Positions 17,413 to 54,744 of a stretch of 64,000 bases of DNA are shown here, in pieces. The translations under genes and the position numbers were made by a program. Positions within the stretch are counted from its first letter, which is position 1, and each line of letters begins with the position of its first letter. The stretch lies in IMG/VR virus record IMGVR_UViG_3300045136_000267; one strand, given 5' to 3'. The DNA comes from a virus. The notes beneath the pieces are model-generated. The model was not told the origin of the DNA, ran no database searches, and saw only the letters and a program-made list of their open reading frames with translations.

Positions 17413-17432
17413 TATTAATGGATTGAATTAGC

Positions 17433-30690: not shown

Positions 30691-32427
30691 ATGCCTACCC
30701 CTGAGTCTTTAATCACACTAGGTACACCATCTACTTTAGGAACACCTTCTACTACAGGAATAGGTGTACTAGACTCTTTGTATTCTCTCTATAGAGCAGT
30801 AGCACCCTTGGCTAGCGTATTTCTGTCTGGTCAAGGGATGATGCATGTAGCACCAGATCAATCTGTAGGGGATCAAATCCAAAGACTTACTGCTCATAGA
30901 AGATCTTATGAATCTATAAAAAGGCTTCTCCCCAGTGAAATCGATGATATGAAAAATGCCATTAGAGGATTATTGATTTCCTCTGGAGTTGATAGATCAA
31001 CACTTGTACCAGGTTCTCCCGTTGAAGAGCACATAGATAGACTAGCAAGATTATTTGAAAAAGTATATCCGTTACTATTTTTCGCATATCCTAGTGCTAT
31101 TAAAGTTATAAATCCTAGATCTAAATTATTTTTAGCTAATTCATTAAATAAAGTCTTTGAAAGACTCACACCTTTCGCTTCACCAGAAGAATTAGCAGAT
31201 TTAGCAGCATCTGCTGCCACTAAAATTCTTTCAAATCCTAAATATCATCAAGGATTAGATGCTCACGAAATAGCAGAAGTTGCAGAAAAGGCTGTTAAAT
31301 TCGGTTTAGTAAGACTTGGTTCCGGTCAGCAATTTACAGATGATTTAATAGATACTATTGCAATAGTAGCTCCTGTCAGAGAAGAAGCTCTGCGTCGTGG
31401 TGGTCAGTTTTCTATTGAGAATGCTTTATCTCTAGCTAATCAAGTAGCACAGCAATTTCCTTCTGCTTCTCTTAGAGATATTGCTGTAGAAATTAGACGT
31501 AGATTTGAACTAGATGCTGCTGGAGGTGAATATAGATCTTTGACCTTAGATCCACAAGCAGCCTCCTATATTCGCCAATCTGGTGTACCAGTAGAAAAGC
31601 TGGAAAAGCAGCATGAAGAACTCAAGGAAAATGCAGTAAATTCTTACATGGGTTCTGCTATAGGGGCTATTGCTAAGGCTGTAAGAACTGGAATGGTATC
31701 TCCGAATAGTCCTGCTGGTAGGATATATCAAAATATTCAAGCTGGAGGAGTTCCTCCTATGATCTATCCACAGCATGCTTTTGAAGTTCTTGTTTCTTCT
31801 GGAATTGCCCCTGGTGTAGCTTCTATTATGTTATCGTCTCCAGAAGAAAATTCTCATTGGTTAACACCTAATGATGTCCAAGCTATAAGAAGAATGCAGA
31901 TGCAAGTAGATTGGATGCCTAGATTTCAAGCTATAGCAGCCTCTTTCCCTGGTAACGATCCCCAATCCAGAGCAGTGAGAGAAGCGATGCTATCAAAAGT
32001 AGTAGCAGATGGTGGTTATAAAAACATATACCATTTCTTAGCTCTACACGGTCCTGTATTGCAATCTATGCCACAGATCAGAGAGGTAGTAACTAGATCT
32101 GCAGTAAATAAAATGGAGCTAGCTGGTTATGATAATGCTAGCTGGGGTGGACCTGCCCGTGGAATGGCAGCATTACAAGATATCGGCTCCGGTAAGCGAG
32201 AACAGAAATTCTCCGTAGGGGATTTGGCTAGTACTGTATTCCAATTTTACAGACAACCCAAAGGACTAGATATAAACCTAGGATTGGCGACTCCTACTCC
32301 AGCTACGGAAATTAAACCTATAGATGTAATGGAAAGAAGAGATAGTATTTCTATAAGAGAAGATTCAATGCCAGAACCTGTTCTGTCAGATTTTTCTTCT
32401 ATAGGGAGATCCTTGAGTAGCGATTAA
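30691..32427 (+). CDS. Cys-free helical virion-candidate protein
   Basis: 578 aa, Ala-rich, no Cys; directly upstream of the ligase. Confidence 0.7.
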   Translation: MPTPESLITLGTPSTLGTPSTTGIGVLDSLYSLYRAVAPLASVFLSGQGMMHVAPDQSVGDQIQRLTAHRRSYESIKRLLPSEIDDMKNAIRGLLISSGVDRSTLVPGSPVEEHIDRLARLFEKVYPLLFFAYPSAIKVINPRSKLFLANSLNKVFERLTPFASPEELADLAASAATKILSNPKYHQGLDAHEIAEVAEKAVKFGLVRLGSGQQFTDDLIDTIAIVAPVREEALRRGGQFSIENALSLANQVAQQFPSASLRDIAVEIRRRFELDAAGGEYRSLTLDPQAASYIRQSGVPVEKLEKQHEELKENAVNSYMGSAIGAIAKAVRTGMVSPNSPAGRIYQNIQAGGVPPMIYPQHAFEVLVSSGIAPGVASIMLSSPEENSHWLTPNDVQAIRRMQMQVDWMPRFQAIAASFPGNDPQSRAVREAMLSKVVADGGYKNIYHFLALHGPVLQSMPQIREVVTRSAVNKMELAGYDNASWGGPARGMAALQDIGSGKREQKFSVGDLASTVFQFYRQPKGLDINLGLATPTPATEIKPIDVMERRDSISIREDSMPEPVLSDFSSIGRSLSSD

Positions 32428-32429
32428 TT

Positions 32430-34724
32430 ATGCCTCCATTTGCTGTTGGTATCCCAGATAAAGCAAATTATGGAAATATTAAAGCATTACAAGAAGGAAA
32501 CTTCTACGATCTAGTATTACAAGAACATGACGCTGAACGCGCCGGCAAACATTATGACTTTAGATTAGGAAATTCTGATATTGGTTTATTATCTTGGGCT
32601 ATACCTTCTGCAAAATTACCGGCGCCTGGGGAAAAAGTATTAGCTATCCAGCAACCTCTTCATTCCTACGATTACAGAACCTTTGTAGGAGAAATACCTT
32701 CTGGTTATGGTAAAGGTAACGTATCTCTAGCTTATTCTGGTAATGCTCTCGTTACGGCCATAGATCCTGATAAAAAGAGAATTTACTTCACCATTGCTTC
32801 TGATAGACATCCACGTAAATTCATATTACTAAAACCTGATACAGATAAATACGGTAAGGATGCTTGGCTATTAATTAATATCACTCCAAATAAGCCACTT
32901 CCTTATGCCAAGGTAAAATACCCCGTTATTGACAAAAAGAAGTTACAACAACTATTAGAGAAAGAAGACTATTTAGTTGCAGAACCTAAGATTGACGGTG
33001 CTCTTGGTTTAGTTCAACTAGGCGACAAAGGATTAGAAATCTTTGGGCATAGAATTTCCAGAGTTACAGGATACCCTATCCAATATACGGATAAGATATT
33101 CAAGACTAAACCTACTCTGAACCTTCCATTAAAGTATGCAGGAAGTATTCTGCGGGGTGAAGTTTATGCCGTAAAGACTTTACCAGACGGCTCAGAAGTA
33201 GTTGTAGAACCACAAATACTTAGTGCAGTATTAAATTCTTCTGTAAAGAATGCTTGGGATAGATTAAGAGATCTCGGTCTTAAACTTAAGATAGGATTAT
33301 TTGATATCACAAATTATGGTGGAAATCATTTAGATCCAGAAACAGTTGACTATCCCGCTAGACGTAAGATGTTACTAGAAATCTTACAATATTTACCTAA
33401 AGATACTTTTACAGTAATTCCTTATGTAGATAAGAAAGAGGACATCCTGAAATTACTCCAGGAAATAGAATCTGGGCAACATCCTCTTACAAAAGAGGGA
33501 ATAGTTGTCTACAGAAGGTATGGTTATCCATACAAATATAAAATAAGACCTGAAGAAGATGTATATATAAAAAGAATTATTCCAGGACTAGGGAAATATT
33601 CAGATTCTGCTGGTGCTTTTGAATATAGCTACACCCCTGACGGCCCTGTAGTAGGTACAGTAGGAACTGGATTTTCTGATGAATTCAGAAAATTCATGAT
33701 GGAAAATGTTGAATCTCTAGTAGGAAGACGAGCTAGGGTAACTTATCAAGAGAAGTTTCCTTCTGGCGCCTTGAGAGCCCCTTCTTTCATTGCTTTGCAC
33801 GAAGACTATCCTACAGTTCAAGAAAAGCAGGCAAGTTTTGTTCTACCAGAAGAAGATGAGAAATGGTTATTAGCCATAGACATTCTAAAGAAAGTAGATA
33901 ATTTTATTAAGAAAGGAGATGCTTCTTCTTATCTAGATATCCCTGTTTTAGAATTACCTGTTAAAGTCTATAACAATATTCAGAAGATATTAGGTGGACC
34001 TAATCCATTAACTGCTATGGCTTTAGATGCTCTTATCGGAATGGCATTAGGAGATCTAGCTGGTAGAACTTTGGAATTTGCTTTTCCTAGATTCTTTGCA
34101 GATAGCAAATTCAGAAAAAGGCTTTGGTTAGCTGGTTCTCTATTAGGTGCTTCTTTACCATTTTATATCCACGGAATTCAAAATCTCAGTACACACGGAT
34201 TAAAAGGTCTTTTAACTCCTTCTCCAATCCAAGAGGCACTGACTAAATCTGCTATTGATTATCATGCTAAGAAACTTCGAGTACTTGCTGAAGATTTAAC
34301 AGGAAAGAAAATAATAGATGATATAAATCCTGAATTCATAAAAGAAGCTTCTGTTAAATTAGCTGCTAAATTTGATGTATCTGAATGGGGTAAGACAGTA
34401 TTAGATACTGATTTATCTCCCTGGGAGAAAACTCTGTTAGTAACTGTGCCATTAACAGCTTCTATGTATAGAGGTTCTGATTGGGTAACTCCTGTTGATG
34501 TTGCTAAAGTATCTGCTAATATGGAATTAGGATCATTGTTCGGTAGGCTATTAGGTGATTTAGCCGTACCTATACTAGGTTTACCCAGGGATGTTAAAGA
34601 AGATCTACAAAGAACAGGTCGCCTTACTGGATTATTAAAAGGTTTTACTGGATCTGTTAAGAACGTATTATTAAATACTGGAGATAAGACTTATGACGAA
34701 ATCGGGAAAGCGCTACAAATTTAG
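32430..34724 (+). CDS. LigD-type 3'-phosphoesterase + ATP-dependent DNA ligase + C-terminal K-x-A/hydrophobic extension
   Basis: PE: QEHDAERAGKHYDFRL, SWAIP, LAIQQPLHSYDY, GEIPSGYGKG; ligase: EPKIDG, LRGEVY, LFDI, EGIVV, YKYK, VGTGFSD, LRAPSF. Confidence 0.9.
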   Translation: MPPFAVGIPDKANYGNIKALQEGNFYDLVLQEHDAERAGKHYDFRLGNSDIGLLSWAIPSAKLPAPGEKVLAIQQPLHSYDYRTFVGEIPSGYGKGNVSLAYSGNALVTAIDPDKKRIYFTIASDRHPRKFILLKPDTDKYGKDAWLLINITPNKPLPYAKVKYPVIDKKKLQQLLEKEDYLVAEPKIDGALGLVQLGDKGLEIFGHRISRVTGYPIQYTDKIFKTKPTLNLPLKYAGSILRGEVYAVKTLPDGSEVVVEPQILSAVLNSSVKNAWDRLRDLGLKLKIGLFDITNYGGNHLDPETVDYPARRKMLLEILQYLPKDTFTVIPYVDKKEDILKLLQEIESGQHPLTKEGIVVYRRYGYPYKYKIRPEEDVYIKRIIPGLGKYSDSAGAFEYSYTPDGPVVGTVGTGFSDEFRKFMMENVESLVGRRARVTYQEKFPSGALRAPSFIALHEDYPTVQEKQASFVLPEEDEKWLLAIDILKKVDNFIKKGDASSYLDIPVLELPVKVYNNIQKILGGPNPLTAMALDALIGMALGDLAGRTLEFAFPRFFADSKFRKRLWLAGSLLGASLPFYIHGIQNLSTHGLKGLLTPSPIQEALTKSAIDYHAKKLRVLAEDLTGKKIIDDINPEFIKEASVKLAAKFDVSEWGKTVLDTDLSPWEKTLLVTVPLTASMYRGSDWVTPVDVAKVSANMELGSLFGRLLGDLAVPILGLPRDVKEDLQRTGRLTGLLKGFTGSVKNVLLNTGDKTYDEIGKALQI

Positions 34725-35202
34725 AAATTATGAATTTTGGGCTGCTGATGGTGTTATTGCTATCCTAGATACATCTAAAGCTGGTAGTTCTAGGGAAAGC
34801 GTAGAGAATGCTACTAAATATGTATTTATCAGTGATTTTATCAAAAATGTGATAGCAGCCTACGGTATTCATTCAGCTATTGATCGGCGAGAAGCTAAGA
34901 AGATGTTAGAAGACGCTATGGAATGTGTTAAAGAAGCTAATAAGAAAGGGGATATTTCCAATCCCAAGATTTTACAGCAGAAACTAGAAGATAGTAGACC
35001 AGTTAAACTTTCTATGGCTAATTACGGTCCTAGTAGAATCTTTCCTTCTGCTAGTCCTAGACCTTTGTTTGAAAGTAATTTGCTAGGACCTTCTGGCAAA
35101 GCTTTCATGAGAAAAATATACGAATTAAGAGCATCGAATTCTGCTAACGTAGATGATATTTTTCTAAATGGAATAGATTACAATACGGTAATTACGGAGT
35201 AA
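34693..35202 (+). CDS. hypothetical protein
   Basis: 169 aa in operon. Confidence 0.65.
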   Translation: MTKSGKRYKFRNYEFWAADGVIAILDTSKAGSSRESVENATKYVFISDFIKNVIAAYGIHSAIDRREAKKMLEDAMECVKEANKKGDISNPKILQQKLEDSRPVKLSMANYGPSRIFPSASPRPLFESNLLGPSGKAFMRKIYELRASNSANVDDIFLNGIDYNTVITE

Positions 35203-35205
35203 TAC

Positions 35206-35586
35206 ATGCCTAATCCTACGAATACGCCCACCCCTGTTATAGATCATATTAGTAACTTCCTATATACTGCTATTCCAACGTCAGCTAGCTATGTAGCGAG
35301 CTACTTTCCCATAATTCATAATTTATCTGGTACCGCAATCGGTAATGCATTAGCTAATATCAGGAATACTTTTGGTTTAAGTTTTCCTTCTGTAAAGAGA
35401 AGCAAAATAATAGCCAAGGAAGTAGCACTTGCACAAAACAAGGCGAGTCTAGAAACAGCTAAAAAGCTACTTAGAGAAGAGATAAATAAATCATTAGAGT
35501 TGATAAGAAATAATAAGACCTCTGACGAAGAAGAGCAACAGACTAAATCTGCTAGTTTCTATATTAAACAGAACAAATACTTGTAA
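35206..35586 (+). CDS. virion-candidate protein
   Basis: C-terminal QTKSASF; no Cys. Confidence 0.6.
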   Translation: MPNPTNTPTPVIDHISNFLYTAIPTSASYVASYFPIIHNLSGTAIGNALANIRNTFGLSFPSVKRSKIIAKEVALAQNKASLETAKKLLREEINKSLELIRNNKTSDEEEQQTKSASFYIKQNKYL

Positions 35587-35588
35587 TC

Positions 35589-35984
35589 ATGGATGAAAAC
35601 TTCCTGAATATGCCTTTTGACCCCACTTTAGGGGGCAAGGATATATTACCTCCTTCTTTTGACACCAAATTTAAAGGTGAGCAGGATCCTAGACATGGTG
35701 GTGTATTATCTTGGCCTGGTATAGAAGGAATACCATTTAGAGGTCCAGTAGTTGACTTAAAAGAAGAAGAACGAAATAGACTCGTATTAGTCAATGATTT
35801 TAAATGTCAAACTTTTGACTTGAGTCAGCCAGAAGATAAAGAATATTATAATTGGGTTATGGATAGAATTTGTAATGGTTTATTTAAATGTCTGTATATC
35901 AATAGAATGTGGAATAATGAACATAAAACTATGTTAGTATATGTAGAATGGGTTCAATCCTACTACGAGCACAGGGATAAATAA
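35589..35984 (+). CDS. hypothetical protein
   Basis: 131 aa; Trp/Tyr-rich C-half. Confidence 0.65.
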   Translation: MDENFLNMPFDPTLGGKDILPPSFDTKFKGEQDPRHGGVLSWPGIEGIPFRGPVVDLKEEERNRLVLVNDFKCQTFDLSQPEDKEYYNWVMDRICNGLFKCLYINRMWNNEHKTMLVYVEWVQSYYEHRDK

Positions 35985-36929
35985 ATGTTAGGTGGTCTTA
36001 GTTTTACAGCTAAAAACTTGGTTCCACTAATAATTACAGGTGGACTCTTTACATACGTTCTTAACGACTATCAAAAGCGTAAAAGAAAATCTAGTATAAG
36101 TAAAGAAGTATCTTACGATATTGATGCAGAATATCTTGAAGACTTATACGGAGTCGATATTCCTACTATTGATGAATTTACTAATATAGAAACTAATTCT
36201 TTATCCAAGAAAGGGTCATTTGATTTTTGGCCGTTTAGAAAGCCCAGTCTGTTTGAGAGTCTATTATCTAATGCAGACAGTTATGTTCTTAAAATGATTT
36301 TACCTATAACTATAGTAGGTGGAGCTGCCGCTTTATTCGGTTATTTCAAGAATAAAAAAGATTACGAGAATATTAAAGCAGAATCTAAGGAAGTAGAAAA
36401 AGAATTAGATGAAGTATTAACTAATACTTGGCTTCTAGCTAAAGAACGTCAAAAGTTATCTAAGAAAGCTACTTGGCAAGCAGCATTACTTCCGCTAGCT
36501 ACTATAGCAAGTGTTATCGCATCTCCTTTTATAACTTCTAAGATTATGGATTGGACTGGAGGATACGGTGCTTTATTAAGAATGTATCTCTTAGGTAATA
36601 CTATAGGCAAAGCGCAAGAAACTTATGCTGCTAAGACTAAAGAAGTGGAATCTGATGAAGATATGATTGAAAGCTATGCTCAGATTGCTGGTACTAGACT
36701 AAGTGATGTGCAAGCTCTAAACAAATTCTCTATTAGCTTGATGAAGAAATTGAATAGATTAGCAGCAATGGAATCTTCTCCACAGAAAAATACCAGAAGA
36801 ACTCCTATAGTCAAGAATTTTACTCCCGAGAATAAACTCGAATCTGAGCATAAGCTAGAAGAAACTGCTACTAAAGAACATAAATCTTCTGTCAGCCTTG
36901 AAGAATTATTTAATGAACAGAAAATTTAA
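35985..36929 (+). CDS. Cys-free virion candidate with several hydrophobic segments
   Basis: three hydrophobic segments; SKKGSF and SKKATW. Confidence 0.65.
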   Translation: MLGGLSFTAKNLVPLIITGGLFTYVLNDYQKRKRKSSISKEVSYDIDAEYLEDLYGVDIPTIDEFTNIETNSLSKKGSFDFWPFRKPSLFESLLSNADSYVLKMILPITIVGGAAALFGYFKNKKDYENIKAESKEVEKELDEVLTNTWLLAKERQKLSKKATWQAALLPLATIASVIASPFITSKIMDWTGGYGALLRMYLLGNTIGKAQETYAAKTKEVESDEDMIESYAQIAGTRLSDVQALNKFSISLMKKLNRLAAMESSPQKNTRRTPIVKNFTPENKLESEHKLEETATKEHKSSVSLEELFNEQKI

Positions 36930-36931
36930 TT

Positions 36932-39900
36932 ATGCAGACATTAGCTAGGCCTGTTCAAGAACTTGAAGAATTGAATCCTGATACCTTTAAGTCTGTAGAT
37001 ACATCTCCAACGTTACCTACTATTACTGACATTCCCAAGAATTCTATAGCAGTAGATGACATTCAAGCAATCAGACATAAAATCTTTGATAATGTACTTA
37101 AAACATTATCTTCTGCTCCAGCACACGCTTATGGTAATTATGTTCTTAAATTAGAGAATCTTAAATATGCTGACCCTGATAAGTTTTCTATTCAAGACGA
37201 AAGAGATGCAATTATTAAAGGTAATTCTCTTACTAGAAGACTAGTAGGCGATTATGTTCTTATTGATGCCAAGACTGGGAAAGAGATAGCTAGAAGAAAG
37301 CAGTTAGTAGCTAGAGTACCTTATCTTACTAGTCATGGATCCTTCATTTTCAATGGAAATGCTTACAGTATTGCCAATCAACTACGTTTAAAGCCTGGCG
37401 TCTTCATACGTCTCCGTGGTGATGGTAATGCAGATACTTTCGTAAATACTGTCAAAGGATTGACTCATCATTATACCCTTGACCCTGAAAAGGGTATATT
37501 CTACATGTCCTTTGGTAATGTAAATATTCCACTATTTACCGTTCTAAAAGCACTCAACGTCCCTGATGAAAAGATTCTAAGTGCTTGGGGTCAGAAACTA
37601 TATGCTTCTAACGCCGCTGCCGGAGCTAAAGCTAACATTGCTAAATTATTTAAGAACAGATTATCTCCAGAACAGATAAATCAAGCTCTTCCTAAACTAT
37701 TAGAGAGCATGAAGTTAGATCCAACAGCTACCCAGCTAACTATTGGTATTCCTGCTACCCATGTCACTCCAGACGTAATGCTTGAAGCTACTAAGAAAAT
37801 GCTAAAAGTATGGAAGGGAGAAGCAGAAGCTGATGAGCGTGATGCTTTACACTTCCAGAAAATAGCAGGAGTAGAACATTTAATTCCAGAATATGTATTC
37901 AGAGCACATCAAGGATTACGTAAGTTCATTCCTAGAGCTGTAAGAAAGAATTTCGATTTAAGCGTTATCCCTAGTAATTATTATTGGACAGGCATCTCAG
38001 ATTTACTTCTCGGTAGTGGCTTAGCCGAGATTTTGGAAGAAATTAATCCCACTGAGACCCTCGATAGACTATACAGAGTTACTAAGTTAGGCGCCGGTGG
38101 TATTGAACAAGTAGAAGCCGTACCAGAGGAAGCTAGATCTGTACATCAGACCCACATGGGTTTTATAGATCCAGCAGTAACAGGTAAGTTAAAGCGAGTA
38201 GGCGTAGATTTAAGACTTGCATATCTTACTAGGAGAGATGAGAACGGTAAACTTTATACAGTATTTAAAGATGTAAAGTCCGGTAAATTCGTATGGCGTT
38301 CTCCAGAAGATCTCATTAATGCCGTAGTAGTTTATCCTGGTGAAATGGATAATAAAGATAATTATGTATTGGGATCTAAGAACGGCAGAATTAGATATTT
38401 CAACAGAGAAGAAGTAGATTACGAACTACCTTATGGGGAACAATATTTCAATACAATTACTAATTTTCTACCTGCACAAGGAACAACCTTCCCCCAACGT
38501 ATCATGATGGGTCAGCAAATGCATTTGCAGGCCCTTCCATTAATTAATGCTGAAGAACCTCTAGTTCAGGGGAAGCTACCTAATCAAGATAACTCTTTCC
38601 AAAGAGCTGCATATAAATATTACGGTGTAGTTAAAAGTGATGTAGATGGAATAGTAGAATCTGTAAGTCCTAATAGAATAGTTGTCAGAGACAAAAGATC
38701 TAATAAGAAAACTGTATACGAATTATACAATAATTTCCCTTTCAATAGAAAGACGTTCATTCATAACACCCCAGTAGTTAAAACAGGGGATGAAGTATAC
38801 AAGAACCAATTATTAGCGACTTCTAATTTCTCCGATAAGAATGGCAATCCCGCTTTCGGATTAAATGCTTACATAGCATTTTTACCTTATCGTGGTTACA
38901 ACTATGAAGATGCTTACGTGGTATCTGAATCTTTTGCTAAAAGATTAAACTCTGAACATATGTATCAAGAAACTCTGGATATAGCTCCAAACATAATCAC
39001 TGGAAAAGATGCTTATAAAGCGGCGTTTCCAGGTAAGTATTCAGAGGAATTTTACAATAACTATGATGAAAATGGATTCTTAAAACCAGGTAGAAAAGCT
39101 ATTAAAGGACAACCATTAATTTTAGCTGTAAAATCTGCAGATCCGGGTAGAATAGGAGCAAAAAAGAAGATACTTTCTGATGCATCTATTATTTGGGATC
39201 ATGAAAATCCTGGTGTAGTAATAGATACTCATAAAGGAAGAGACAATCTTTATATCAACATTAAGTCTAATTCTTTAGCAATTGAAGGAGACAAGTTAAC
39301 CGGTAGATTTGGTGACAAGGGTGTAATCGCTAGGATCATTCCTGATAGTGAAATGCCTAGAGATAGTCTAGGCAGACCCTTTGATTTACTAGTTAATCCT
39401 CTAGGACTAGCTACTAGAGGTAATATGGGGCAAATCTATGAGGCTGTTCTAGGTAAAATTGCCGCTAAAAATAAGAAACCTGTATTTGTTCCAGCCTTCA
39501 TGAGCGACTATTACGTTTTTGCTGATAATATGTTGAAGGCCAATAGGGTTTCCCCCACAGATACTGTTTATGACCCAAAATTTGGCACATATATTCCTAA
39601 TGTTTTAACTGGATATAAATATGTGATGAAATTGCATCACATGGCAGAATCTAAGTTGCAAGAAAGAGAGACTGCTGAATATACAGCAGAAGACATGCCT
39701 GCTAGAGGAGGTAAGACAGGGGCAAAATATATAGGTTTCTTGGAATTGATGGGTATCTTAGGTCACAATGCTTTCAATGTTATTAGAGATGCCAAGTTTG
39801 TTAGAGGACAAAGAAATGACAGATTTTGGCTAGATTTCATGCGTGGTGCTACTCCCACAGTCAATACATCAACATTGGTTTATGATAAATTTGTAAACCT

Positions 39901-41335
39901 ATTAAAAGCTGCAGGTATAAATATAGAAAGTAACAACGACACTTTGAATCTTTTCGCCCTTACAAACTCTGATATCGCTAACCTGACTGCAGATAGGGTA
40001 ATTAGAAATCCAAATACTGTTAAAGTATTACGTGATGATGTTAAGCCAATAACAGGCGGTTTATTTGATCCGACTATTACTGGAGGTCTAGATGGTAGGC
40101 ATTGGAGCTATTTTGAATTATCTGAACCATTTCCAAATCCAGTAATGGAAGATGTAATTCGTACATTATTGGATTTAACAGAGAAAGATTACATTGACAT
40201 TCTAATAGGAAAGAAAACTCTTGAAGGTTCAAATAAATTAGGGCCAGAAGCCCTTAAGGAAGTCTTATCAGAATTTAATGTTGATAAAGAACTAGATACA
40301 GCTATTCGCAATTACAAAGTAGCTCCTGCTAGCAAAAAAAGTGCTTTGATAAAGAAGATTAGATATCTACGGGCTATAAAGCAAACTAATCAAAAGCCAG
40401 AAGAATGGTTCTGGACGAGAATGCCTATTATTCCACCAATCTTTCGTCCAGTCTCCTTAACTAATAAAGTAATAACGGTAGCTGATGTTAATGCTTTGTA
40501 TCAAGATTTGTATGAAGCTAATGAAATATTAAATTCTCAGAAGAAATTCATGGAAAATCCATCAGAAGCTAGACTTGCTGTCTACAACGGCATGAAGGCT
40601 GTAGCAGGAATAGGTGATCCTATTCAAGTTAAACATAAGCAGCAGGGGTTAAGGGGTTTATTACAGCAGATAGTAGGTACCAGGTCTAAAACAAGCTATG
40701 TAATGCGTAAGCTTATTGGTATAACTACTGACTTGGTAGGTAGAGCTGTAATCATTCCAAATCCTGCCTTGGATATAGATCATGTAGGTATTCCCATAGA
40801 AATGGCCTGGACTTTATTCAGGCCAGTAATAATAAGAAATCTGACTAAACGCGGACTTTCTCTAGTAGATGCAATAAAAGCATATAATGATAAATCTAAA
40901 TATGCAGTAGATGCGTTACTAGAAGAGATAAATAACAGGGTAGTTATAGTAAATAGAGCGCCAGTACTGCATAGATATGGTGTAATGGCATTTAAGCCAG
41001 TTCTTACAAAGAATAAAGTAGTAGAATTCAATCCTCAAATAACGTCAGCTTTTGGAGCAGACTTTGATGGTGATGCTGTTCAAGTACATCTTCCCATACT
41101 TGATGAAGCTCAAAAAGAAGCTAAGATGAAAATGCTACCATCAAAGAATTTATTCTCTTCTGCTAATTTTGGACTGTTATATCCTCCGATTAGAGAGTAT
41201 GCTTTAGGTTTATGGCTGGCAACAGCTTACGAAGATAAAACTAAAAAACCTGTAAGGTTTAAATCTATTGGCGACCTACTTAAAGCATATAATAGAGGTG
41301 AAATTACAATAAATACGCCAGTAGAAATTGGTTAG
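36932..41335 (+). CDS. phage multisubunit RNA polymerase: beta fused to N-terminal half of beta'
   Basis: beta: GSFIFNG..QLRLKPGVF, GYNYEDA, GDKLTGRFGDKGVI, KLHHMAESK; beta': GGLFDP, PIIPPIFRP, NRAPVLHR, catalytic GADFDGD (41054-41074). Confidence 0.95.
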   Translation: MQTLARPVQELEELNPDTFKSVDTSPTLPTITDIPKNSIAVDDIQAIRHKIFDNVLKTLSSAPAHAYGNYVLKLENLKYADPDKFSIQDERDAIIKGNSLTRRLVGDYVLIDAKTGKEIARRKQLVARVPYLTSHGSFIFNGNAYSIANQLRLKPGVFIRLRGDGNADTFVNTVKGLTHHYTLDPEKGIFYMSFGNVNIPLFTVLKALNVPDEKILSAWGQKLYASNAAAGAKANIAKLFKNRLSPEQINQALPKLLESMKLDPTATQLTIGIPATHVTPDVMLEATKKMLKVWKGEAEADERDALHFQKIAGVEHLIPEYVFRAHQGLRKFIPRAVRKNFDLSVIPSNYYWTGISDLLLGSGLAEILEEINPTETLDRLYRVTKLGAGGIEQVEAVPEEARSVHQTHMGFIDPAVTGKLKRVGVDLRLAYLTRRDENGKLYTVFKDVKSGKFVWRSPEDLINAVVVYPGEMDNKDNYVLGSKNGRIRYFNREEVDYELPYGEQYFNTITNFLPAQGTTFPQRIMMGQQMHLQALPLINAEEPLVQGKLPNQDNSFQRAAYKYYGVVKSDVDGIVESVSPNRIVVRDKRSNKKTVYELYNNFPFNRKTFIHNTPVVKTGDEVYKNQLLATSNFSDKNGNPAFGLNAYIAFLPYRGYNYEDAYVVSESFAKRLNSEHMYQETLDIAPNIITGKDAYKAAFPGKYSEEFYNNYDENGFLKPGRKAIKGQPLILAVKSADPGRIGAKKKILSDASIIWDHENPGVVIDTHKGRDNLYINIKSNSLAIEGDKLTGRFGDKGVIARIIPDSEMPRDSLGRPFDLLVNPLGLATRGNMGQIYEAVLGKIAAKNKKPVFVPAFMSDYYVFADNMLKANRVSPTDTVYDPKFGTYIPNVLTGYKYVMKLHHMAESKLQERETAEYTAEDMPARGGKTGAKYIGFLELMGILGHNAFNVIRDAKFVRGQRNDRFWLDFMRGATPTVNTSTLVYDKFVNLLKAAGINIESNNDTLNLFALTNSDIANLTADRVIRNPNTVKVLRDDVKPITGGLFDPTITGGLDGRHWSYFELSEPFPNPVMEDVIRTLLDLTEKDYIDILIGKKTLEGSNKLGPEALKEVLSEFNVDKELDTAIRNYKVAPASKKSALIKKIRYLRAIKQTNQKPEEWFWTRMPIIPPIFRPVSLTNKVITVADVNALYQDLYEANEILNSQKKFMENPSEARLAVYNGMKAVAGIGDPIQVKHKQQGLRGLLQQIVGTRSKTSYVMRKLIGITTDLVGRAVIIPNPALDIDHVGIPIEMAWTLFRPVIIRNLTKRGLSLVDAIKAYNDKSKYAVDALLEEINNRVVIVNRAPVLHRYGVMAFKPVLTKNKVVEFNPQITSAFGADFDGDAVQVHLPILDEAQKEAKMKMLPSKNLFSSANFGLLYPPIREYALGLWLATAYEDKTKKPVRFKSIGDLLKAYNRGEITINTPVEIG

Positions 41336-41358
41336 TCTTTTTTATTAGGAGAGTTTGA

Positions 41359-41952
41359 ATGAAAGGTTCTCATTTATTTCAATTAGATCCTAATGCTTTC
41401 ATGAAGGCTTTAGCTAAATTAGCTTCCGAAAAGAACGCCTTTGTTCCTCCTGGTGGCGGTGCTCCTCCTGGTGCTCCTCCTGGAGGTATGCCTATGGATC
41501 CTGCCATGATGGGTATGGCAGCTCCTCCCGGTGGTGGTGCTACTCCAATGGATCCTGCCATGATGGGTATGGCTCCTCCGCCTGGAGGTATGCCTATGGA
41601 TCCATCAATGATGGGTGGCGGGGCTCCTCCTGGTGGAGGCGCTCCTCCTCCGATGGGCGGTGGGCTTCCTCCGGAATTGATGCAGTTATTAGCTTCTCCG
41701 CCCGGCGGTGCTCCTGAGTCCACTGATAATTCTGGCGCTCCTGGCTCTGAAGTCGGTGAGGAGCAAGGTACCGGTACTTCTACCAGTACTCTAATGGAAA
41801 TGAAACCCGAAGAGTTCAAAACCTTAGTGATTGATGCTGTAGAAAAAGGTTTCGCTAATTCTGCAGATTCAATGTTAAGGGTACTAGAAGATATTAGAGA
41901 TGCTTTAACTAATAAGGCTGGTACTTCTAGAGGCGAGAACGAGAACCTCTAA
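41359..41952 (+). CDS. Gly/Pro/Met low-complexity protein between the RNAP genes
   Basis: PMDP(A/S)MMG repeats; N-terminal AKLASEKNAF. Confidence 0.75.
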   Translation: MKGSHLFQLDPNAFMKALAKLASEKNAFVPPGGGAPPGAPPGGMPMDPAMMGMAAPPGGGATPMDPAMMGMAPPPGGMPMDPSMMGGGAPPGGGAPPPMGGGLPPELMQLLASPPGGAPESTDNSGAPGSEVGEEQGTGTSTSTLMEMKPEEFKTLVIDAVEKGFANSADSMLRVLEDIRDALTNKAGTSRGENENL

Positions 41953-41959
41953 TTAATTA

Positions 41960-43810
41960 ATGACTACAGCAGGTGCTGTTTTAATAAATGCAATATTACC
42001 AGAGGATATAAAAGTATCTGGTACTTTAGACGTAAAAGAGATAAGGGCTCTTTTGTCTAAAGTAGCTCAGAAGTATCCAGATAAATTTCCAGAGATTTCT
42101 TTGAAGTTAGGGAACTTGGGTGCCGATTTTGCATATCGGCACCCAAAGTCTTCTTTTTCTTGGGAGGAATTAGCTCCTACATACGAATTAGATAATCTAA
42201 GAAAAGATTTATATTCTAAAGTTAGAGAAATAATTTCCGATTCCACTACAGACTGGGATAAAAAGTCTAGTAAAATAATAGATATAGTATCTAAATATGA
42301 TGATCTCTTCTTGGAAAAAACCAAAGAGATATTGAAACAGAGAGGTGGGGCTCTTTACGGTCAGTCTTCTTCTGGTACTAGAGGTAAACCTGTAGATATT
42401 AGAAGACTTCTAACGGGTGATATTCTCTACGTAGATCATAAGAATCGACCTATTCCTGTTCCAGTATTACGCGGTTATTCAATGGGTCTAAGACCAAGCG
42501 AATACTGGCTAGCAACTTTCGGCGCCAGAAAAGGATTCGTGACTACGAATCTTGGAACAGCAGATGCTGGGTACCTAAGCAAACAATTAACTAATGCTGC
42601 TCATAGACTTATAGTCACTGCTGTTGATTATAAAGGTAAGGATCCACTACCTATTGGATTACCAGTAGATACTTCAGATCCTGATAATGCTGGTAGCTTT
42701 CTTGCCGCAGATGTAGGCGGCTATAAACGAAATACTTTATTAACTCCAGAGATATTAGCTGATTTGAAAAATAAAGGTTTTAACCAGATTCTTGTCAGAA
42801 GCGTTTTAACCAAAAGACTACCAGGTGGTGGAGTAACTGCTAAAGATGTTGGATTAATGGAAAACGGTAGAATGTTAAGCCCAGGGGATATGATTGGAAT
42901 AATTGCTTCTCAATCTCTAGGTGAACCTGTAACACAAATGGTTATTGGGGCTAAACATTCTGGTGGTACTTCTAAGACTAAGATAGACATTGGTTCTTTG
43001 ATTCTAGCTTTGCAAGTACCCAAACAATATAGGGGAGCTGTACATACCGACAATGCAGGTACTGTTAAAAACATTACGGATGCTTCTGCTGGTGGTAAGA
43101 TTGTTACCATTGATAATGAACAGTATTACGTACCTCCGCAAGAAGAAGTAAATGTAAAAATTGGTGACTTTGTAGAAGCTGGTGATCCTATTAGTTCTGG
43201 AATTCCAAATATTTCTAAGTTAGTACAGCATAAAGGCATTGGAGAAGGTAGAAGGAAATATGTAGAATTATTAAGAGATATTTATAAGCAAACAGGTTTT
43301 AATATAATAAGAAGAAACTTTGAAATATTAGTTTCTGGATTAATAGATCATGTAAAATTAACTCAACCCATAGGGAATTACATTCCTGGAGATGTGGTAT
43401 CTTACACGTGGTTAGAATCTAAGTGGACACCACGGGAAGGTAGTAAATGGATATCAGTAGATAAAGCTGCAGGAAAATATCTAGAATTGCCAGTTTTACA
43501 TTATACTATCGGAACAGCTATTGCACCATCTATGGTGAAAATATTAAAACAATTTAATATTGACAATGTTTTAGTACATGACGATCCTCCGCCATTTGAA
43601 CCTTACATGGTTCCGGCTGCTAAAGTTATTGATTATGATCCAGATTGGTTAGTACGATTTTTAGGTGGTACCTTTGGACAGAAGAGAAGCTTAATAAAAG
43701 CTGTTAGTGAGGGACATAAGAGTGAGATTTTCTCTACTTCTTATGTACCTCCTTTCGTTACCGGGAAAGCATTTGCCACGGAGTGGCCTAAAAAGATTCT
43801 GCAAAGTTGA
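41960..43810 (+). CDS. phage RNA polymerase beta' C-terminal half
   Basis: SGTRG, bridge helix GARKGFVTTNLGTADAGYL, trigger loop SQSLGEPVTQM..KHSGG, RNFEILV. Confidence 0.93.
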   Translation: MTTAGAVLINAILPEDIKVSGTLDVKEIRALLSKVAQKYPDKFPEISLKLGNLGADFAYRHPKSSFSWEELAPTYELDNLRKDLYSKVREIISDSTTDWDKKSSKIIDIVSKYDDLFLEKTKEILKQRGGALYGQSSSGTRGKPVDIRRLLTGDILYVDHKNRPIPVPVLRGYSMGLRPSEYWLATFGARKGFVTTNLGTADAGYLSKQLTNAAHRLIVTAVDYKGKDPLPIGLPVDTSDPDNAGSFLAADVGGYKRNTLLTPEILADLKNKGFNQILVRSVLTKRLPGGGVTAKDVGLMENGRMLSPGDMIGIIASQSLGEPVTQMVIGAKHSGGTSKTKIDIGSLILALQVPKQYRGAVHTDNAGTVKNITDASAGGKIVTIDNEQYYVPPQEEVNVKIGDFVEAGDPISSGIPNISKLVQHKGIGEGRRKYVELLRDIYKQTGFNIIRRNFEILVSGLIDHVKLTQPIGNYIPGDVVSYTWLESKWTPREGSKWISVDKAAGKYLELPVLHYTIGTAIAPSMVKILKQFNIDNVLVHDDPPPFEPYMVPAAKVIDYDPDWLVRFLGGTFGQKRSLIKAVSEGHKSEIFSTSYVPPFVTGKAFATEWPKKILQS

Positions 43811-43830: not shown

Positions 43831-46167
43831 ATGACTTCTAGCTTAAGTACTAGTTTTTCTGTCTTAAGAAAATTACCTGAAAAGAGGTTTCTGGGTAATT
43901 ATAAATTTGCAGCCGCAGAGGGGGATGAAGGTAATTATGAAGCTGCTTTGAGCAACATTGCTCATGCTTATATACAAGACGTAGCCCCAGATCTACTTCC
44001 TTATGAATTGGGATTTCAGTTAGTTGAAAAGAACAGAGACGCTAATAGAGCCCTTGGTGTATTTGGTTTTAAGATAAACAACTTAGTTTGTTATATTCCT
44101 ATTTTCTTTATTGATGGAGACATTTTTGGCCTAGATCTTCTCTTTGTTCATAATTTTAAGCGCTGGATTCCTCTTGAGAGAGAATTTGTAAAGAAATTAA
44201 TTAATTCTTCTAAAGCAGCTGTAGGTAGTCCAGTAGATGCTCTATCTAAATCGTTATTATCTGAATTACCTAATTTAATGCAATTTAAGCCTTATACGCT
44301 CAAGTGGGCTATGGACCTACCTGAATGGCTAAGACCTTTCTCTGTAGAACTAGTAAATAACAAAAGAGCACCTAAAGTAGAGAGAAAAGAGAGATTATTA
44401 GATTTACTTTCTAAATCCGCTTCTGCCGCAAGGAAATTTAGTGAATTTTTACTTGAGCATCCTATTTACATTAAATCTTTTGACAAAGCCTATGGTTTGA
44501 ATCGTATTAAAGAAGCTATTAAAACAGCGGCTGATACTGACAAAAAACCAGTAATTCCTTCATTGGAGGAATCTGGTAAACCTGCTGATGTAGAGATTTA
44601 TACTAATATCCATTCAGACGCTATTCATAAACTTACTGAGACAGAATTGGCCACCCTTAGAAGACAAGGATATTATGTAAAGGATAAGAGAAATAAAACT
44701 ACTATTATAAAACCGTATGAATTTAACAATAAGAAAGCACAGACGGTAGATAAAGCAGGTTTTTATCATCTATTACTTGCCGATCTATCTAGAGTGTGTG
44801 CTTTTGTAGTACCTATCGTAGCTGAATTTGATGAAGATGTTTATTCGTCTTCTAATGAGAACGAAAGAAAGCGTCGTGATAAGCATATTAAGCATTCTTA
44901 TTTAGTAGTTCCTATTTATAGAATGGCAGAAGATGGTGAAATCTTAAAGACTTATTCTGGTGACCTTGGCTTTGTCGCTTATTCTGATAGCTTAGTGGCT
45001 ATTAATACTCCAAAAGACTATGATAAACATTCTATTAATGACTTTAAGTCATTAAGAAATATCGAAGGTAATAAAGATTATTACAGCAGATATATAGTAT
45101 TTACAGCAAATAATGCTACTCCTCCTATTAGGCAGTTAAAGAAATTAGATAAACAACATAGAGGTAGGACACTATTCTCTGTAGACTTAGACTGTGGTTG
45201 TGTATCTGAGGGACCAATCGAGCCATATCCTACCCATCTTGTATTAGATCCTGTTCTAACTAATGAAATTAAGTTCCATAAGAGATTTGATAATAATGCT
45301 AAATGGAATGAAAAGTCTATAAGATTACATGTTCCTGTCAATGCTAAATATGTGAAACTAATAAACGATTATGTAGACTCTGATTCTGAAGAGGCAGAAA
45401 TAAATAGTATTAGGCATGGTCTTGTTAGTTCTAATGACATTTTACGTACTCTTCTTAAGAGTGCAGATGGTGAATTAAAGGCATTTGAAATATCTAACGA
45501 TGAGGTAATCATTAATAACAAACCCTTGAATAAGAAAGCTGCCTTTCAACATCTAATTCTAGACTATGGCTTGAGTGAAGCTGACGCTAAAGAAGTATTG
45601 AAGAAAGTTGCATATAAGAAGGAAGCTAGATACGTCTATAAAAAAGCAGATGATATGAATTTTCCAAATGCTCCTCCGCCTCCAGGAGGACCTGCATTGG
45701 AAAAGATGCAGCCTTATCTAGGTTCGTTTGGACAAGCTCCTGCAACTAGTCCTCTTTACTCTATTCTAGTAAATCAAATTCCAGGCCTCCCATTGCCTGA
45801 TAATCCTTATTCTGATCTCAAAGGTACTATTGATTTTGATAAGATTGTCAATCAAGCGATTCAATCCGGGGAAAAAGAAATTCTGGACACTAGCGTATTT
45901 ACTGGTTTGATCCATGCTACTGATGAGAGAGAATTAATAGATAAATATTTTGATGACATAGTAGATGGTCTAAATGCTATTGGACAACTATTATTTAATA
46001 TTTACATGCATAAAGACAAAATTGAAGAAGTATATGGTAAAGAATCTTATAAAGAGATAGAAAATCTAGTTAGAAATAATTTCAGAAATTTAGGAAAGAT
46101 GGTAGTAAGGTTATTCAATAGACCTAATACTTCTAACTTCAAACCATTAACTTCTTTAGAGGTGTAA
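43831..46167 (+). CDS. large K-x-A-rich prohead core candidate
   Basis: YKFAA, LKWAM, SKSAS, IKTAA, LKSAD, NKKAA, KKVAYKKEA, YKKAD. Confidence 0.65.
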   Translation: MTSSLSTSFSVLRKLPEKRFLGNYKFAAAEGDEGNYEAALSNIAHAYIQDVAPDLLPYELGFQLVEKNRDANRALGVFGFKINNLVCYIPIFFIDGDIFGLDLLFVHNFKRWIPLEREFVKKLINSSKAAVGSPVDALSKSLLSELPNLMQFKPYTLKWAMDLPEWLRPFSVELVNNKRAPKVERKERLLDLLSKSASAARKFSEFLLEHPIYIKSFDKAYGLNRIKEAIKTAADTDKKPVIPSLEESGKPADVEIYTNIHSDAIHKLTETELATLRRQGYYVKDKRNKTTIIKPYEFNNKKAQTVDKAGFYHLLLADLSRVCAFVVPIVAEFDEDVYSSSNENERKRRDKHIKHSYLVVPIYRMAEDGEILKTYSGDLGFVAYSDSLVAINTPKDYDKHSINDFKSLRNIEGNKDYYSRYIVFTANNATPPIRQLKKLDKQHRGRTLFSVDLDCGCVSEGPIEPYPTHLVLDPVLTNEIKFHKRFDNNAKWNEKSIRLHVPVNAKYVKLINDYVDSDSEEAEINSIRHGLVSSNDILRTLLKSADGELKAFEISNDEVIINNKPLNKKAAFQHLILDYGLSEADAKEVLKKVAYKKEARYVYKKADDMNFPNAPPPPGGPALEKMQPYLGSFGQAPATSPLYSILVNQIPGLPLPDNPYSDLKGTIDFDKIVNQAIQSGEKEILDTSVFTGLIHATDERELIDKYFDDIVDGLNAIGQLLFNIYMHKDKIEEVYGKESYKEIENLVRNNFRNLGKMVVRLFNRPNTSNFKPLTSLEV

Positions 46168-49431: not shown

Positions 49432-49998
49432 ATGACTCAGCTAACTAATGAAGGTTTAGCTTTTGTATTACAATCGTATTCTAAAGAACTTGAATCTGCT
49501 CAAAAGAAGGTTAAGAAATTAGCTTCTGCAAAAAAGAATAATATTAAGACAGCTGGTAGCAGATTTAGTATTAATGAATTAGAAGGCGTAAGTCCTGGTG
49601 GTCTAGGTGATTTGCTATTAAATCCCCTAGTTTTAGGTGGTCTTATAGCTGCACTTTATGGTGCCGGTAAGCACGGTCTGATTCCTGGATTAGATACTGT
49701 AAGAGAGAAAATTAATCCTGTGACAGAGGCTGCCACGGGTGCTTTTAGTAATCCAGGGGCTACAGCAAAGAGTCTCAAGAATGTACTTGCTTCCGCCTTA
49801 TCTGATTATGGACCTGCTGCTGGGGTAGGTGCTCTTGCTTCTATTTTGGGTCAGATCCTTAAAGGTGATGGTATCAGTCTGTTAAGCGCAGGCGGTACTG
49901 GTTTAGTTACTGGTGGTGGTCTAGCTGTAATTGATGCGTTAGCTAAAGCCTTAGGTACTAATACGCAAGGCAGTGGATCAGGCGGCGGTAGGGCTTGA
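49432..49998 (+). CDS. glycine-zipper-like virion membrane protein with K-x-A leader
   Basis: KKLAS...IKTAG then GxxxG-rich hydrophobic segments; no Cys. Confidence 0.65.
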   Translation: MTQLTNEGLAFVLQSYSKELESAQKKVKKLASAKKNNIKTAGSRFSINELEGVSPGGLGDLLLNPLVLGGLIAALYGAGKHGLIPGLDTVREKINPVTEAATGAFSNPGATAKSLKNVLASALSDYGPAAGVGALASILGQILKGDGISLLSAGGTGLVTGGGLAVIDALAKALGTNTQGSGSGGGRA

Positions 49999-50121
49999 GC
50001 ACCTACCATTGTCATTAAATAACCATTGATGCCGTTGCTAATAAAAGCAAAAAGCATTGCTTAATATCTTATTTATTAGAATATAAGGATAACAGCATTG
50101 TTTTAAAAATGAACTTTAAAC

Positions 50122-50595
50122 ATGAACATTAACGATGTTAACCCATACACAGAAGAATTTCTCAAGCAAGCTGAATTAGATGTAGGAAAGTTATTATCGG
50201 ATCCTCATGTTTTATATCCTTCTATCGGCATAGCTATCTCTCTAGCTACTAACACTAATCCTTTGATCCCCGCTCTTATAGGTCTAGCCGCTGCAGAATA
50301 TCAAGATCCAAAGATACTAAATGCTATTAACCCAGAAAGTTACGCTAAAGCAAAAATCAAAGAAGAAGTTAGTAAGGCTATATGGCATCCTTTATCCGTA
50401 GCAGGCGCAACAGCCGCCGGCACGTACGCAGGCTCAAGAGTTGCAAATGCTATTGCTACTCAAGGCCCTGGCACAGCTTTAAAGAATATGGCTGCTAGTT
50501 CAGGCAAATTTATTGGACCAGCTGCAGGTGCTACTGCTGCTCTCTCAATCCCAGTTCTATTAAACTTTTTAGCAGATAAAATAATTGGTAAATAG
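50122..50595 (+). CDS. glycine-zipper-like virion membrane protein with K-x-A leader
   Basis: EEFLKQAEL; AGATAAGTYAG, GPAAGATAAL; no Cys. Confidence 0.65.
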   Translation: MNINDVNPYTEEFLKQAELDVGKLLSDPHVLYPSIGIAISLATNTNPLIPALIGLAAAEYQDPKILNAINPESYAKAKIKEEVSKAIWHPLSVAGATAAGTYAGSRVANAIATQGPGTALKNMAASSGKFIGPAAGATAALSIPVLLNFLADKIIGK

Positions 50596-50611
50596 AACTG
50601 GTAACTACGAC

Positions 50612-54343: not shown

Positions 54344-54360
54344 CTTGGAGATCCTAAACC

Positions 54361-54744
54361 ATGAAACAGTTAGATAATGAGAAGCTCATTGCTTTGATGA
54401 ATATCTACAATGAGCTTACTAAAAGAGTAGGTGATTATTATACGAAGGAAGCTCAATATAAAGAGCATGCTTCGTCTTTAGCAGATCAAATTATTAATGA
54501 TTTGCGAGAAGCGAACTTGATTAATGAAGATCAATCTAATAAATTGAAAGAGAATTTATTGAAAAGTGCTACTGCTGCTTTGACTACTTTAAGTGAAGTA
54601 GCAAAGAATGTAGCCAACTCTAATATTAATTCTCTTGGAACTCCATATTCCGTTGCTGGTGATAGATTCTCTGGTAAGAATGTATTCTCTAGCAGATATG
54701 TGGAGTTTGATGGTTTGACTTTAGACAAGACTAGATACTTGTAA
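54361..54744 (+). CDS. small scaffold/core candidate
   Basis: TKEAQ, LKSAT; helical. Confidence 0.6.
   Translation: MKQLDNEKLIALMNIYNELTKRVGDYYTKEAQYKEHASSLADQIINDLREANLINEDQSNKLKENLLKSATAALTTLSEVAKNVANSNINSLGTPYSVAGDRFSGKNVFSSRYVEFDGLTLDKTRYL

Follow-up and report, generated by a model that had tools for sequence, protein, structure and literature searches.

A predicted two-chain RNA polymerase core, with beta joined to the front of beta-prime, shared by a large group of tailed phages

Introduction

Multisubunit RNA polymerases (RNAPs) are normally built on a platform formed by an alpha dimer, and few known proteins are as strongly conserved as their large subunits. A 64,000-nucleotide stretch of viral DNA (IMG/VR record IMGVR_UViG_3300045136_000267; hereafter the window, part of a 164.6-kb contig) carries one gene in which beta runs in frame into the front part of beta-prime, and a second gene for the rest of beta-prime. 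The locus raises the question of whether the subunit borders of the enzyme have been redrawn in a phage, how this came about and what such an enzyme would do. As described below, the two genes very probably encode the phage's own two-chain multisubunit RNAP core, real and conserved as judged from its sequence relatives, and their layout is shared by a very large, mostly uncultured phage group.

One beta and a divided beta-prime on two chains

The RNAP genes are the outer two of three close-packed genes on the plus strand, P0001 (chain 1), P0002 and P0003 (chain 2), and are not adjacent. An earlier interpretation of this DNA, made from its letters and open reading frames (ORFs) and here called the sequence-only reading, overlooked the conserved 197-amino-acid (aa) gene between them. 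The features of the locus are as follows.

36932-41335, + strand: chain 1 gene (P0001, 1467 aa, no cysteine), a single uninterrupted ORF with a complete beta in frame with the N-terminal part of beta-prime (beta-prime-N)
39287-39325, + strand: beta active-site lysine motif GDKLTGRFGDKGV (P0001 aa 786-798), aligned with GDKMAGRHGNKGV at residues 1063-1075 of E. coli beta
39899-39976, + strand: beta/beta-prime joint, with LLKAAGINIES, NNDT and LNLFALTNSDI in frame
41054-41074, + strand: catalytic Mg-binding motif GADFDGD (P0001 aa 1375-1381), recognized by its motif
41312-41335, + strand: split point, the conserved chain 1 end NTPVEIG and a TAG stop (41333-41335), from the sequence and its relatives
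41359-41952, + strand: intervening gene (P0002, 197 aa, no cysteine), with an AGGAG ribosome site 7 nucleotides (nt) upstream
41960-43810, + strand: chain 2 gene (P0003, 616 aa, no cysteine), the C-terminal part of beta-prime (beta-prime-C), Pfam family Rpb1_5
42518-42610, + strand: bridge helix (P0003 aa 187-217), aligned with the E. coli beta-prime bridge helix region
42884-42967, + strand: N-terminal arm of the trigger loop (P0003 aa 309-336), aligned with E. coli beta-prime

Domain mapping with hidden Markov models, a check that the sequence-only reading had proposed, gave Rpb2_2, Rpb2_3 and Rpb2_6 (aa 180-918) followed by Rpb1_1 and Rpb1_2 (aa 1120-1399) in P0001, and then Rpb1_5 in P0003, in that order. 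When aligned with E. coli, P0001 aa 115-958 corresponded to beta 113-1294 and aa 1082-1431 to beta-prime 160-514, while P0003 aa 129-369 and 388-484 corresponded to beta-prime 719-966 and 1187-1284. Chain 2 lacks the SI3 insert, the match skipping from E. coli residue 966 to 1187. Beta-prime chains of the PDB cover aa 2-486 of P0003, and Gp216 of Salmonella phage Arash covers aa 3-606 (E value 6e-56). This domain map and the E. coli alignment bear out the proposal of the sequence-only reading: chain 1 carries both double-psi barrels, and chain 2 carries the bridge helix and trigger loop.

At the joint, the beta tail LLKAAGINIES (P0001 aa 990-1000, nt 39899-39931) is followed by the four residues NNDT (nt 39932-39943) and by the beta-prime start LNLFALTNSDI (from nt 39944), all inside one ORF, where the sequence-only reading had put an in-frame passage from beta to beta-prime at about 39930. 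Sequences with beta-prime alone start at this column of the alignment, and phage fusions have no linker and lack the equivalent of the ~12 N-terminal residues of E. coli beta-prime. As that reading also had it, chain 1 continues through GADFDGD and then stops, and the new gene opening with MTTAGAVLIN resumes beta-prime at a place comparable to E. coli TTVGRAIL (residue 572).

Both beta active-site lysines are retained in all phage rows of the alignment. Among 120 chain 1 homologues, GADFDGD is found in 95 and NADFDGD in 18, and the trigger loop of P0003 retains the histidine equivalent to E. coli H936. As far as can be predicted from these residues, the two-chain RNAP is probably catalytically active.

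In many relatives of chain 2 (P0138-P0211) the protein is 1085-2250 aa long, in some cases with inteins, and other long ones are fused to PF18905, to AAA_33/AAA_18-type kinase domains or to PF14091; beta-prime-C is a frequent fusion partner within this clade.

Authenticity and spread of the layout

The fusion ORF is not due to chance or misassembly. Four further 1467-aa sequences from Logan, JGI and ENA assemblies were 99.0-99.6% identical to it, with the same joint and the same end, and five independent assemblies, including the window, therefore agree. More distant homologues of chain 1 were surveyed in the best 120 clusters (90% identity) of a 5.8-billion-protein collection. Rpb2_6 and Rpb1_2 were present together in 120 of 120, with 43-61% identity across the joint, on contigs of up to 235 kb. 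Most of these proteins were 1443-1492 aa long; a minority were longer, with inserts, or were fragments of ~915-1000 aa on short contigs.

Next, 231 aa with the joint at their centre served as a query against one representative per 50%-identity cluster. This query matched 1041 proteins at E <= 1e-3, 989 at E <= 1e-10 and 416 at E <= 1e-30, and the joint was crossed in all of the best 150 matches, by one stretch or by two adjoining ones. Since E. coli beta scored only 17 bits over the beta half of the query, the 416 clusters at E <= 1e-30 are inferred to be essentially all fused forms. Beta-prime-C was present in none of the 150 best cluster representatives; 138 of them reached the end of P0001, and all 138 stopped at most 19 residues later (median 4). 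The layout is common to several hundred 50%-identity clusters, and is widespread in nature and has gone unnoted in phage genomes already deposited.

Relatives in culture and a possible link to the virion

P0001 was compared by tblastn with 50,697 phage records, with a required coverage of at least 80%. Four records passed, at 31% identity: Salmonella phage Arash and Vibrio phages D69, D148 and D181. The layout, shared by several hundred clusters and these four cultured phages, is not confined to a single genome. The identity of P0001 to Arash Gp206 and to D69 0261 is 31% across 95% of its length. Chain 1 of Arash (Gp206, 1525 aa, OQ632216.1) ends with NTPIKIG where the window has NTPVEIG, and its chain 2 (Gp216, 606 aa) starts with MMTQIITPGALL where the window has MTTAGAVLIN; in both Arash and D69 the cut is at the same residue as in the window. 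The window fits the general pattern of a chain 1 with NTP-x-x-IG at its end and a separate chain 2 with TT-x-G-x-x-L at its start. These phages also share with the window the joint, the clade in the tree described below (support 99/95), a portal gene upstream and a gp218-like gene downstream, and Arash and D69 each have one RNAP set and no alpha or omega. The differences are that the Arash-type enzymes are only 31% and 26% identical to those of the window, and that the space between the two RNAP genes holds nine genes in Arash (some on the opposite strand), two in D69 and one Pro/Gly-rich gene in the window. Arash has a helicase gene after beta-prime-C, and no match for this helicase was found in the window.

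In the particle preparation of Arash, Gp206 was the most detected protein (3516 spectra), ahead of the capsid protein; Gp216 was fifth (1210 spectra), gp218 gave 1149 spectra, and the sigma-like Gp10 was also found. The authors named the two polymerase proteins beta and beta-prime and did not mention the fusion (PMC10585845). For packaging in the virion, the evidence is mass spectrometry of particles in Arash, and gene context and the absence of cysteine in the window.

In D181, a group I intron (RF00028, 100.7 bits) with a homing-endonuclease ORF lies inside the chain 1 gene (L018, 4916-5196), and the record annotates this gene as two hypothetical proteins of 514 and 1006 aa. Gene fission was considered for this interruption and rejected, as it is a group I intron and the protein is not split.

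Unsplit relatives, position of the cut and phylogeny

A search for long relatives of P0003 returned single-chain proteins with Rpb2_6, Rpb1_2 and Rpb1_5, generally of ~2000-2130 aa and longer where inteins are present. Examples of these full fusions are P0214 (2087 aa), P0327 (2102 aa) and P0336, which is labelled 'uncultured Caudovirales phage'; they occur on phage-like contigs of up to 215 kb and are 27-34% identical to P0001 and P0003. The phage collection yielded no cultured example. The column of the joint is identical in split and full-fusion forms, and the N-terminal zinc ribbon of beta-prime is deleted in the full fusions likewise; they differ in that their beta-prime is uncut and that most of them retain the second zinc site.

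The equivalents of P0001 residue 1466 and P0003 residue 2 are only 4-10 residues apart in the full fusions (1505 and 1510 in P0217, 1830 and 1840 in P0212, 820 and 824 in P0213). Because the chain ends abut in the unsplit relatives, nothing is missing from the split enzyme. By these alignments the cut is clean and lies in a variable loop equivalent to E. coli beta-prime 549-571, just before TTVGRAIL.

A careful tree was built with IQ-TREE (LG+C20+F+G4 by PMSF) from 31 rows and 995 beta-prime columns. The fused phage enzymes were separated from bacteria with support of 100/100 and fell in no sampled bacterial phylum, and the Helicobacter fusion stood beside E. coli. The split clade (window, five metagenomic relatives, Arash and D69) had support of 99/95 and arose once in 99% of the bootstrap trees, and the full fusions were its sister group (86/92). 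In a quick tree, Carin-5 and RHph_Y65, which have separate beta and beta-prime genes, and phage RP13 were placed on long branches elsewhere.

Both phage groups have the joint and the ribbon deletion in common and bacterial beta-prime is uncut, so that by parsimony the fusion preceded the split. With bacteria as the outgroup, fusion and ribbon loss would have come first, and a single fission would have followed on the branch leading to the split clade.

The sequence-only reading had likened the enzyme to bacterial RNAP rather than to the phiKZ type, and had suggested capture from a bacterial lineage. The likeness stands: the best PDB matches are bacterial (1e-59 for beta; 5e-48 and 3.9e-31 for beta-prime), and similarity to the phiKZ-like Ralstonia phage RP13 is weaker (1e-29 and 1e-13). 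The suggested capture is unsupported as regards a particular bacterial donor, as the phage clade lies outside the sampled bacterial groups.

Zinc sites and cysteine

Zinc sites were compared in an alignment of 45 sequences, 13 from bacteria and 32 from fused phage forms. Of the two sites in beta-prime, the N-terminal ribbon (E. coli C70/72/85/88) was present in 13 of 13 bacterial rows and deleted in 32 of 32 phage rows. The second zinc site (E. coli C814/888/895/898) was retained in Arash, D69 and most full fusions. It was lost in the window, where its residues are Y, K, T and D, in the five metagenomic relatives and also in some full-fusion lineages.

The loss extends to cysteine as a whole. 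P0001, P0002 and P0003 together have no cysteine in 2280 residues, compared with a window mean of 0.73% (below 1e-7 by a simple Poisson estimate). Chain 1 is free of cysteine in 98 of 120 homologues, and those with at least 8 cysteines are longer or insert-bearing forms, with inteins where domains are recorded. In Arash and D69, chain 1 has 1-2 cysteines, and the 4 found in chain 2 are those of the second zinc site.

Cysteine is also unevenly distributed over the window. About 23 of the 54 larger ORFs are free of it and are clustered around the head and RNAP region (for example 16417-19670, 21878-23227, 26858-28072, 30691-36929, 49432-51706, 53120-54744 and 55409-56335), and ORFs in the first 16 kb have 1-4%.

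Alpha, omega and sigma

No alpha or sigma Pfam family was matched at E <= 0.01 by any of the 66 window ORFs of at least 90 aa, in agreement with the sequence-only reading, which saw neither gene in the window; omega was likewise missing among these ORFs. The complete genomes of Arash and D69 gave no match to alpha (PF01000, PF01193) or omega (PF01192), control genomes being positive in 14 of 14 cases. Each of the two genomes had one Rpb1_2 match, and Sigma70_r2 matches were present.

The motif GGCATAAATA-NN-TGG (at most 2 mismatches) occurs 14 times in the window against 2.3 expected, and none of 100 shuffles reached 14. Seven copies are on the plus strand in the first 10 kb (623, 1484, 4306, 4737, 7071, 9359 and 9448). 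The motif may serve the phage RNAP as a promoter or as another kind of signal.

Genomic context of the RNAP genes

The surroundings of the two chains include the following genes.

23231-25900, + strand: portal gene (E 3e-56 to Arash gp204, 2e-60 to the D69 portal)
35985-36929, + strand: upstream gene, 314 aa, free of cysteine, its stop 2 nt before the RNAP start
43831-46167, + strand: downstream gene, 778 aa (phmmer to Arash gp218, E 1.6e-9, and to D69 0266, E 1.9e-5)
55409-56335, + strand: capsid-protein lead, 308 aa, free of cysteine (ESM feature search score 0.98, 200 of 256 features)

The product of the intervening gene P0002 consists of 15% Pro, 17% Gly and 10% Met, has MDPAMMGM-like repeats and gave no Pfam or PHROG match. 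Homologues with 38-43% identity occupy the equivalent place in three of the metagenomic relatives (L006, L008 and L009), and proteins of similar composition do so in the other two (L012 and L013). The common order in the five relatives is a gene of ~250-350 aa, chain 1, the Pro/Gly-rich gene, a gene of ~85 aa (in 4 of 5), chain 2 and a gene of ~780-825 aa. The small gene just before chain 2 (~80-106 aa; L006 14981-15241, L008 15033-15353, L009 14989-15246, L012 15194-15436) is absent from the window, where P0002 and P0003 are only 7 nt apart (41953-41959).

The 314-aa upstream gene is kept in position in relatives and is poorly conserved in sequence (16-24% identity). The 778-aa downstream gene is syntenic in the five relatives at 24-40% identity; a profile of its product had no match in the PDB, and the ESM Atlas gave no usable match. 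Most genes neighbouring the RNAP genes had no PHROG or Pfam match. The portal gene, the gp218-like protein and the capsid lead provide evidence, at the level of sequence, that the RNAP genes sit in the head region of a tailed phage genome. No tRNA gene was found in the window and no Rfam family reached its gathering score, hence no rRNA.

Several other products in the window have recognizable parts. The portal protein is 889 aa long, compared with 579-593 aa in relatives, and has an insert of ~257 aa after portal residue ~45, with intein and Hint matches. The feature clusters of the capsid lead are those of Uroviricota capsid proteins, and it had no Pfam or PHROG match. A cysteine-free 764-aa protein (32430-34724, + strand) contains a LigD 3'-phosphoesterase domain, an ATP-dependent ligase with an OB domain and an unmatched tail of ~300 aa; it is found at the same place upstream of the RNAP genes in L006, L008 and L009. 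Among the ORFs of at least 90 aa, one matches the AAA_15/AAA_21/AAA_23 ATPase families (best E 2.7e-14) and one matches DUF2345 (E 6e-4).

Comparison with other polymerases

RNAPs of the phiKZ/AR9 type are likewise phage-encoded multisubunit enzymes without alpha or omega, their beta-prime is also cut shortly after its double-psi barrel, and one of their sets is packed in the virion. In contrast, their beta is in 2-3 pieces and never fused to beta-prime, and they have two sets per genome (PMC7598289); beta in the window is whole and fused, and the window, Arash and D69 have one set each. The cut also differs, as beta-prime-N of RP13 ends ~35 residues before that of P0001.

In cyanobacteria and plastids, a split beta-prime illustrates that a cut is tolerated after the active-site domain, with beta there separate. 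The sequence-only reading had placed the phage split near this site, which it is, although not at it: the cyanobacterial gamma subunit (624-625 aa in the PDB) runs ~65 residues past the phage cut, the end of P0001 falling at about gamma residue 559 as judged from match coordinates only. The Helicobacter and Wolbachia fusions, cited in the same reading as precedents, do show that beta and beta-prime tolerate end-to-end joining. The Helicobacter event is nevertheless independent of the phage fusion, since that protein nests with E. coli and, unlike the phage forms, retains a linker and both zinc sites, the ribbon included.

The mReC phages are likewise tailed and uncultured, and their RNAP is bacterial-like and branches deeply (PMC7481178). 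In the rows of Supplementary Data 2 of that study that were compared, beta (~900-1560 aa) and beta-prime (~900-1390 aa) are separate products; these rows include no pair of ~1467 and 616 aa, and a fusion is not mentioned. With separate subunits in these data, mReC was rejected as a description of the layout. The 'moraphage' lineage (PMC12619734) was rejected as a description of the clade, since those phages have no RNAP.

No account of the layout turned up in literature that included PMC10585845, PMC7598289, PMC7824862 and PMC7481178, most subscription journals being outside the search. Phage multisubunit RNAPs as a kind were already known, and the Arash and Vibrio proteins had been deposited with the fusion unremarked. 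The full-fusion sister group and the evidence of a clean cut that it provides, the stepwise pattern of zinc sites, the bootstrapped tree and the position of the cut at residue level relative to the E. coli, phiKZ-type and cyanobacterial enzymes are new.

Proposed enzyme and alternative explanations

Taken together, these features suggest the following model. Chain 1 (1467 aa) would be a compact, complete beta plus beta-prime-N that holds both barrels and the whole catalytic centre (the two lysines and DFDGD). Chain 2 (616 aa), with the rim helices, bridge helix, trigger loop and C-terminal part of beta-prime, would dock onto chain 1 for activity, and the covalent link between beta and beta-prime may stand in for the alpha-dimer assembly platform. 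In this lineage, the joining of beta to beta-prime and the loss of the N-terminal zinc ribbon would have come first, and a single cut of beta-prime in the surface loop 549-571 second. The enzyme may be packed in the capsid, leave it together with the DNA and initiate transcription under the guidance of a sigma-like phage factor, which would be encoded outside the window. By analogy with Arash, packaging in the virion of the window's phage is plausible and is moderately favoured. The model in its entirety is proposed tentatively: this would be the most pared-down core of a cellular-type RNAP in this analysis, with two chains, 2083 residues and no alpha, omega, zinc or cysteine, the link serving as platform, stored in the capsid and threaded through the tail, made by fusion and then a single fission, and carried by several hundred lineages of large phages.

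Several points weigh against this model or parts of it. The equivalents of E. coli M932 and R933 in the trigger loop of P0003 are Ile and Gly, and the flap region of the phage enzymes is ~11 residues shorter than in E. coli. The monophyly of the full fusions has support of 86/92 only, and one quick tree with fewer full fusions made the group paraphyletic, the quick trees otherwise agreeing with the careful one; the order of events depends on parsimony with a bacterial outgroup. Particle data come from Arash and not from the window's phage, and the Arash authors caution that abundant enzymes may carry over into particle preparations (PMC10585845). Finally, no sigma-like gene was detected in the 64-kb window, either by Pfam or with the sigma-like ORFs of Arash and D69, which leaves the promoter-recognition step unsupported for the window's phage.

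The most serious alternative, which is judged unlikely rather than remote, is that the enzyme is real and two-chain but is made after infection for middle or late transcription and is not packed in the virion. Many phage RNAPs are not packaged, for example the non-virion enzyme of phiKZ (PMC7598289), and the Arash paper itself leaves room for contamination of particle preparations by abundant enzymes. On the other hand, Gp206 was the top protein in Arash particles and was accompanied there by Gp216 and a sigma-like protein (PMC10585845). Arash and D69 have only one RNAP set each, the genes lie among those for the portal, the gp218-like virion protein and the capsid lead, and the cysteine and zinc sites have been purged.

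A second possibility is that the polymerase is a decayed and catalytically dead relic with another role, such as a structural head protein. The loss of both zinc sites and all cysteines, the two changed trigger-loop residues and the shortened flap region could be taken in this sense. This is very improbable, as DFDGD, the beta lysines, the bridge helix and the trigger-loop histidine are intact in the window and in the family, and full length has been retained at 31% identity to Arash with no internal stops.

It could further be supposed that the 624-nt gap between the two genes is an intron, an intein remnant or a pair of split-intein halves, and that splicing yields one full chain. P0001 and P0003 do share a reading frame (both starts, 36932 and 41960, leave a remainder of 2 when divided by 3), and mobile elements target these RNAP genes, as seen from the inteins in many homologues and the group I intron of D181. 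However, no Rfam family was found in the gap at E <= 1, nor in the window at the gathering score; the gap codes for a conserved protein, with a ribosome site of its own; the chain ends abut exactly in unsplit relatives, which leaves no room for intein halves; and relatives are out of frame (5240 nt from start to start in L006), with gaps that vary widely, up to the nine genes of Arash. The splicing explanation was rejected on these grounds and is given hardly any weight.

That the fusion arose artificially, by misassembly or a frameshift, or that the genes belong to a reduced bacterium, is the least credible alternative and can practically be dismissed: metagenomic contigs can be chimeric and some relatives are filed in Betaproteobacteria and Nitrososphaerota bins, but the same 1467-aa ORF was recovered in five independent assemblies, the joint is kept in several hundred diverged clusters, the layout occurs in cultured phages, and a portal homologue and a capsid lead are encoded in the window, where neither tRNA nor rRNA genes were found.

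Implications

The two-chain RNAP family shifts the borders between the subunits of the enzyme: one chain holds both barrels of the active site, and the mobile parts, bridge helix and trigger loop, belong to the second. The family has no alpha or omega, and the clade of the window has no zinc or cysteine either. It is a natural experiment on the minimal requirements for the assembly of a core. With its succession of fusion, zinc loss and fission, it also offers a traceable series for the re-cutting of RNAP genes. Arash and Vibrio phage D69 are the cultured entry points for the structure of this 2000-residue enzyme and for its possible ejection from the capsid.

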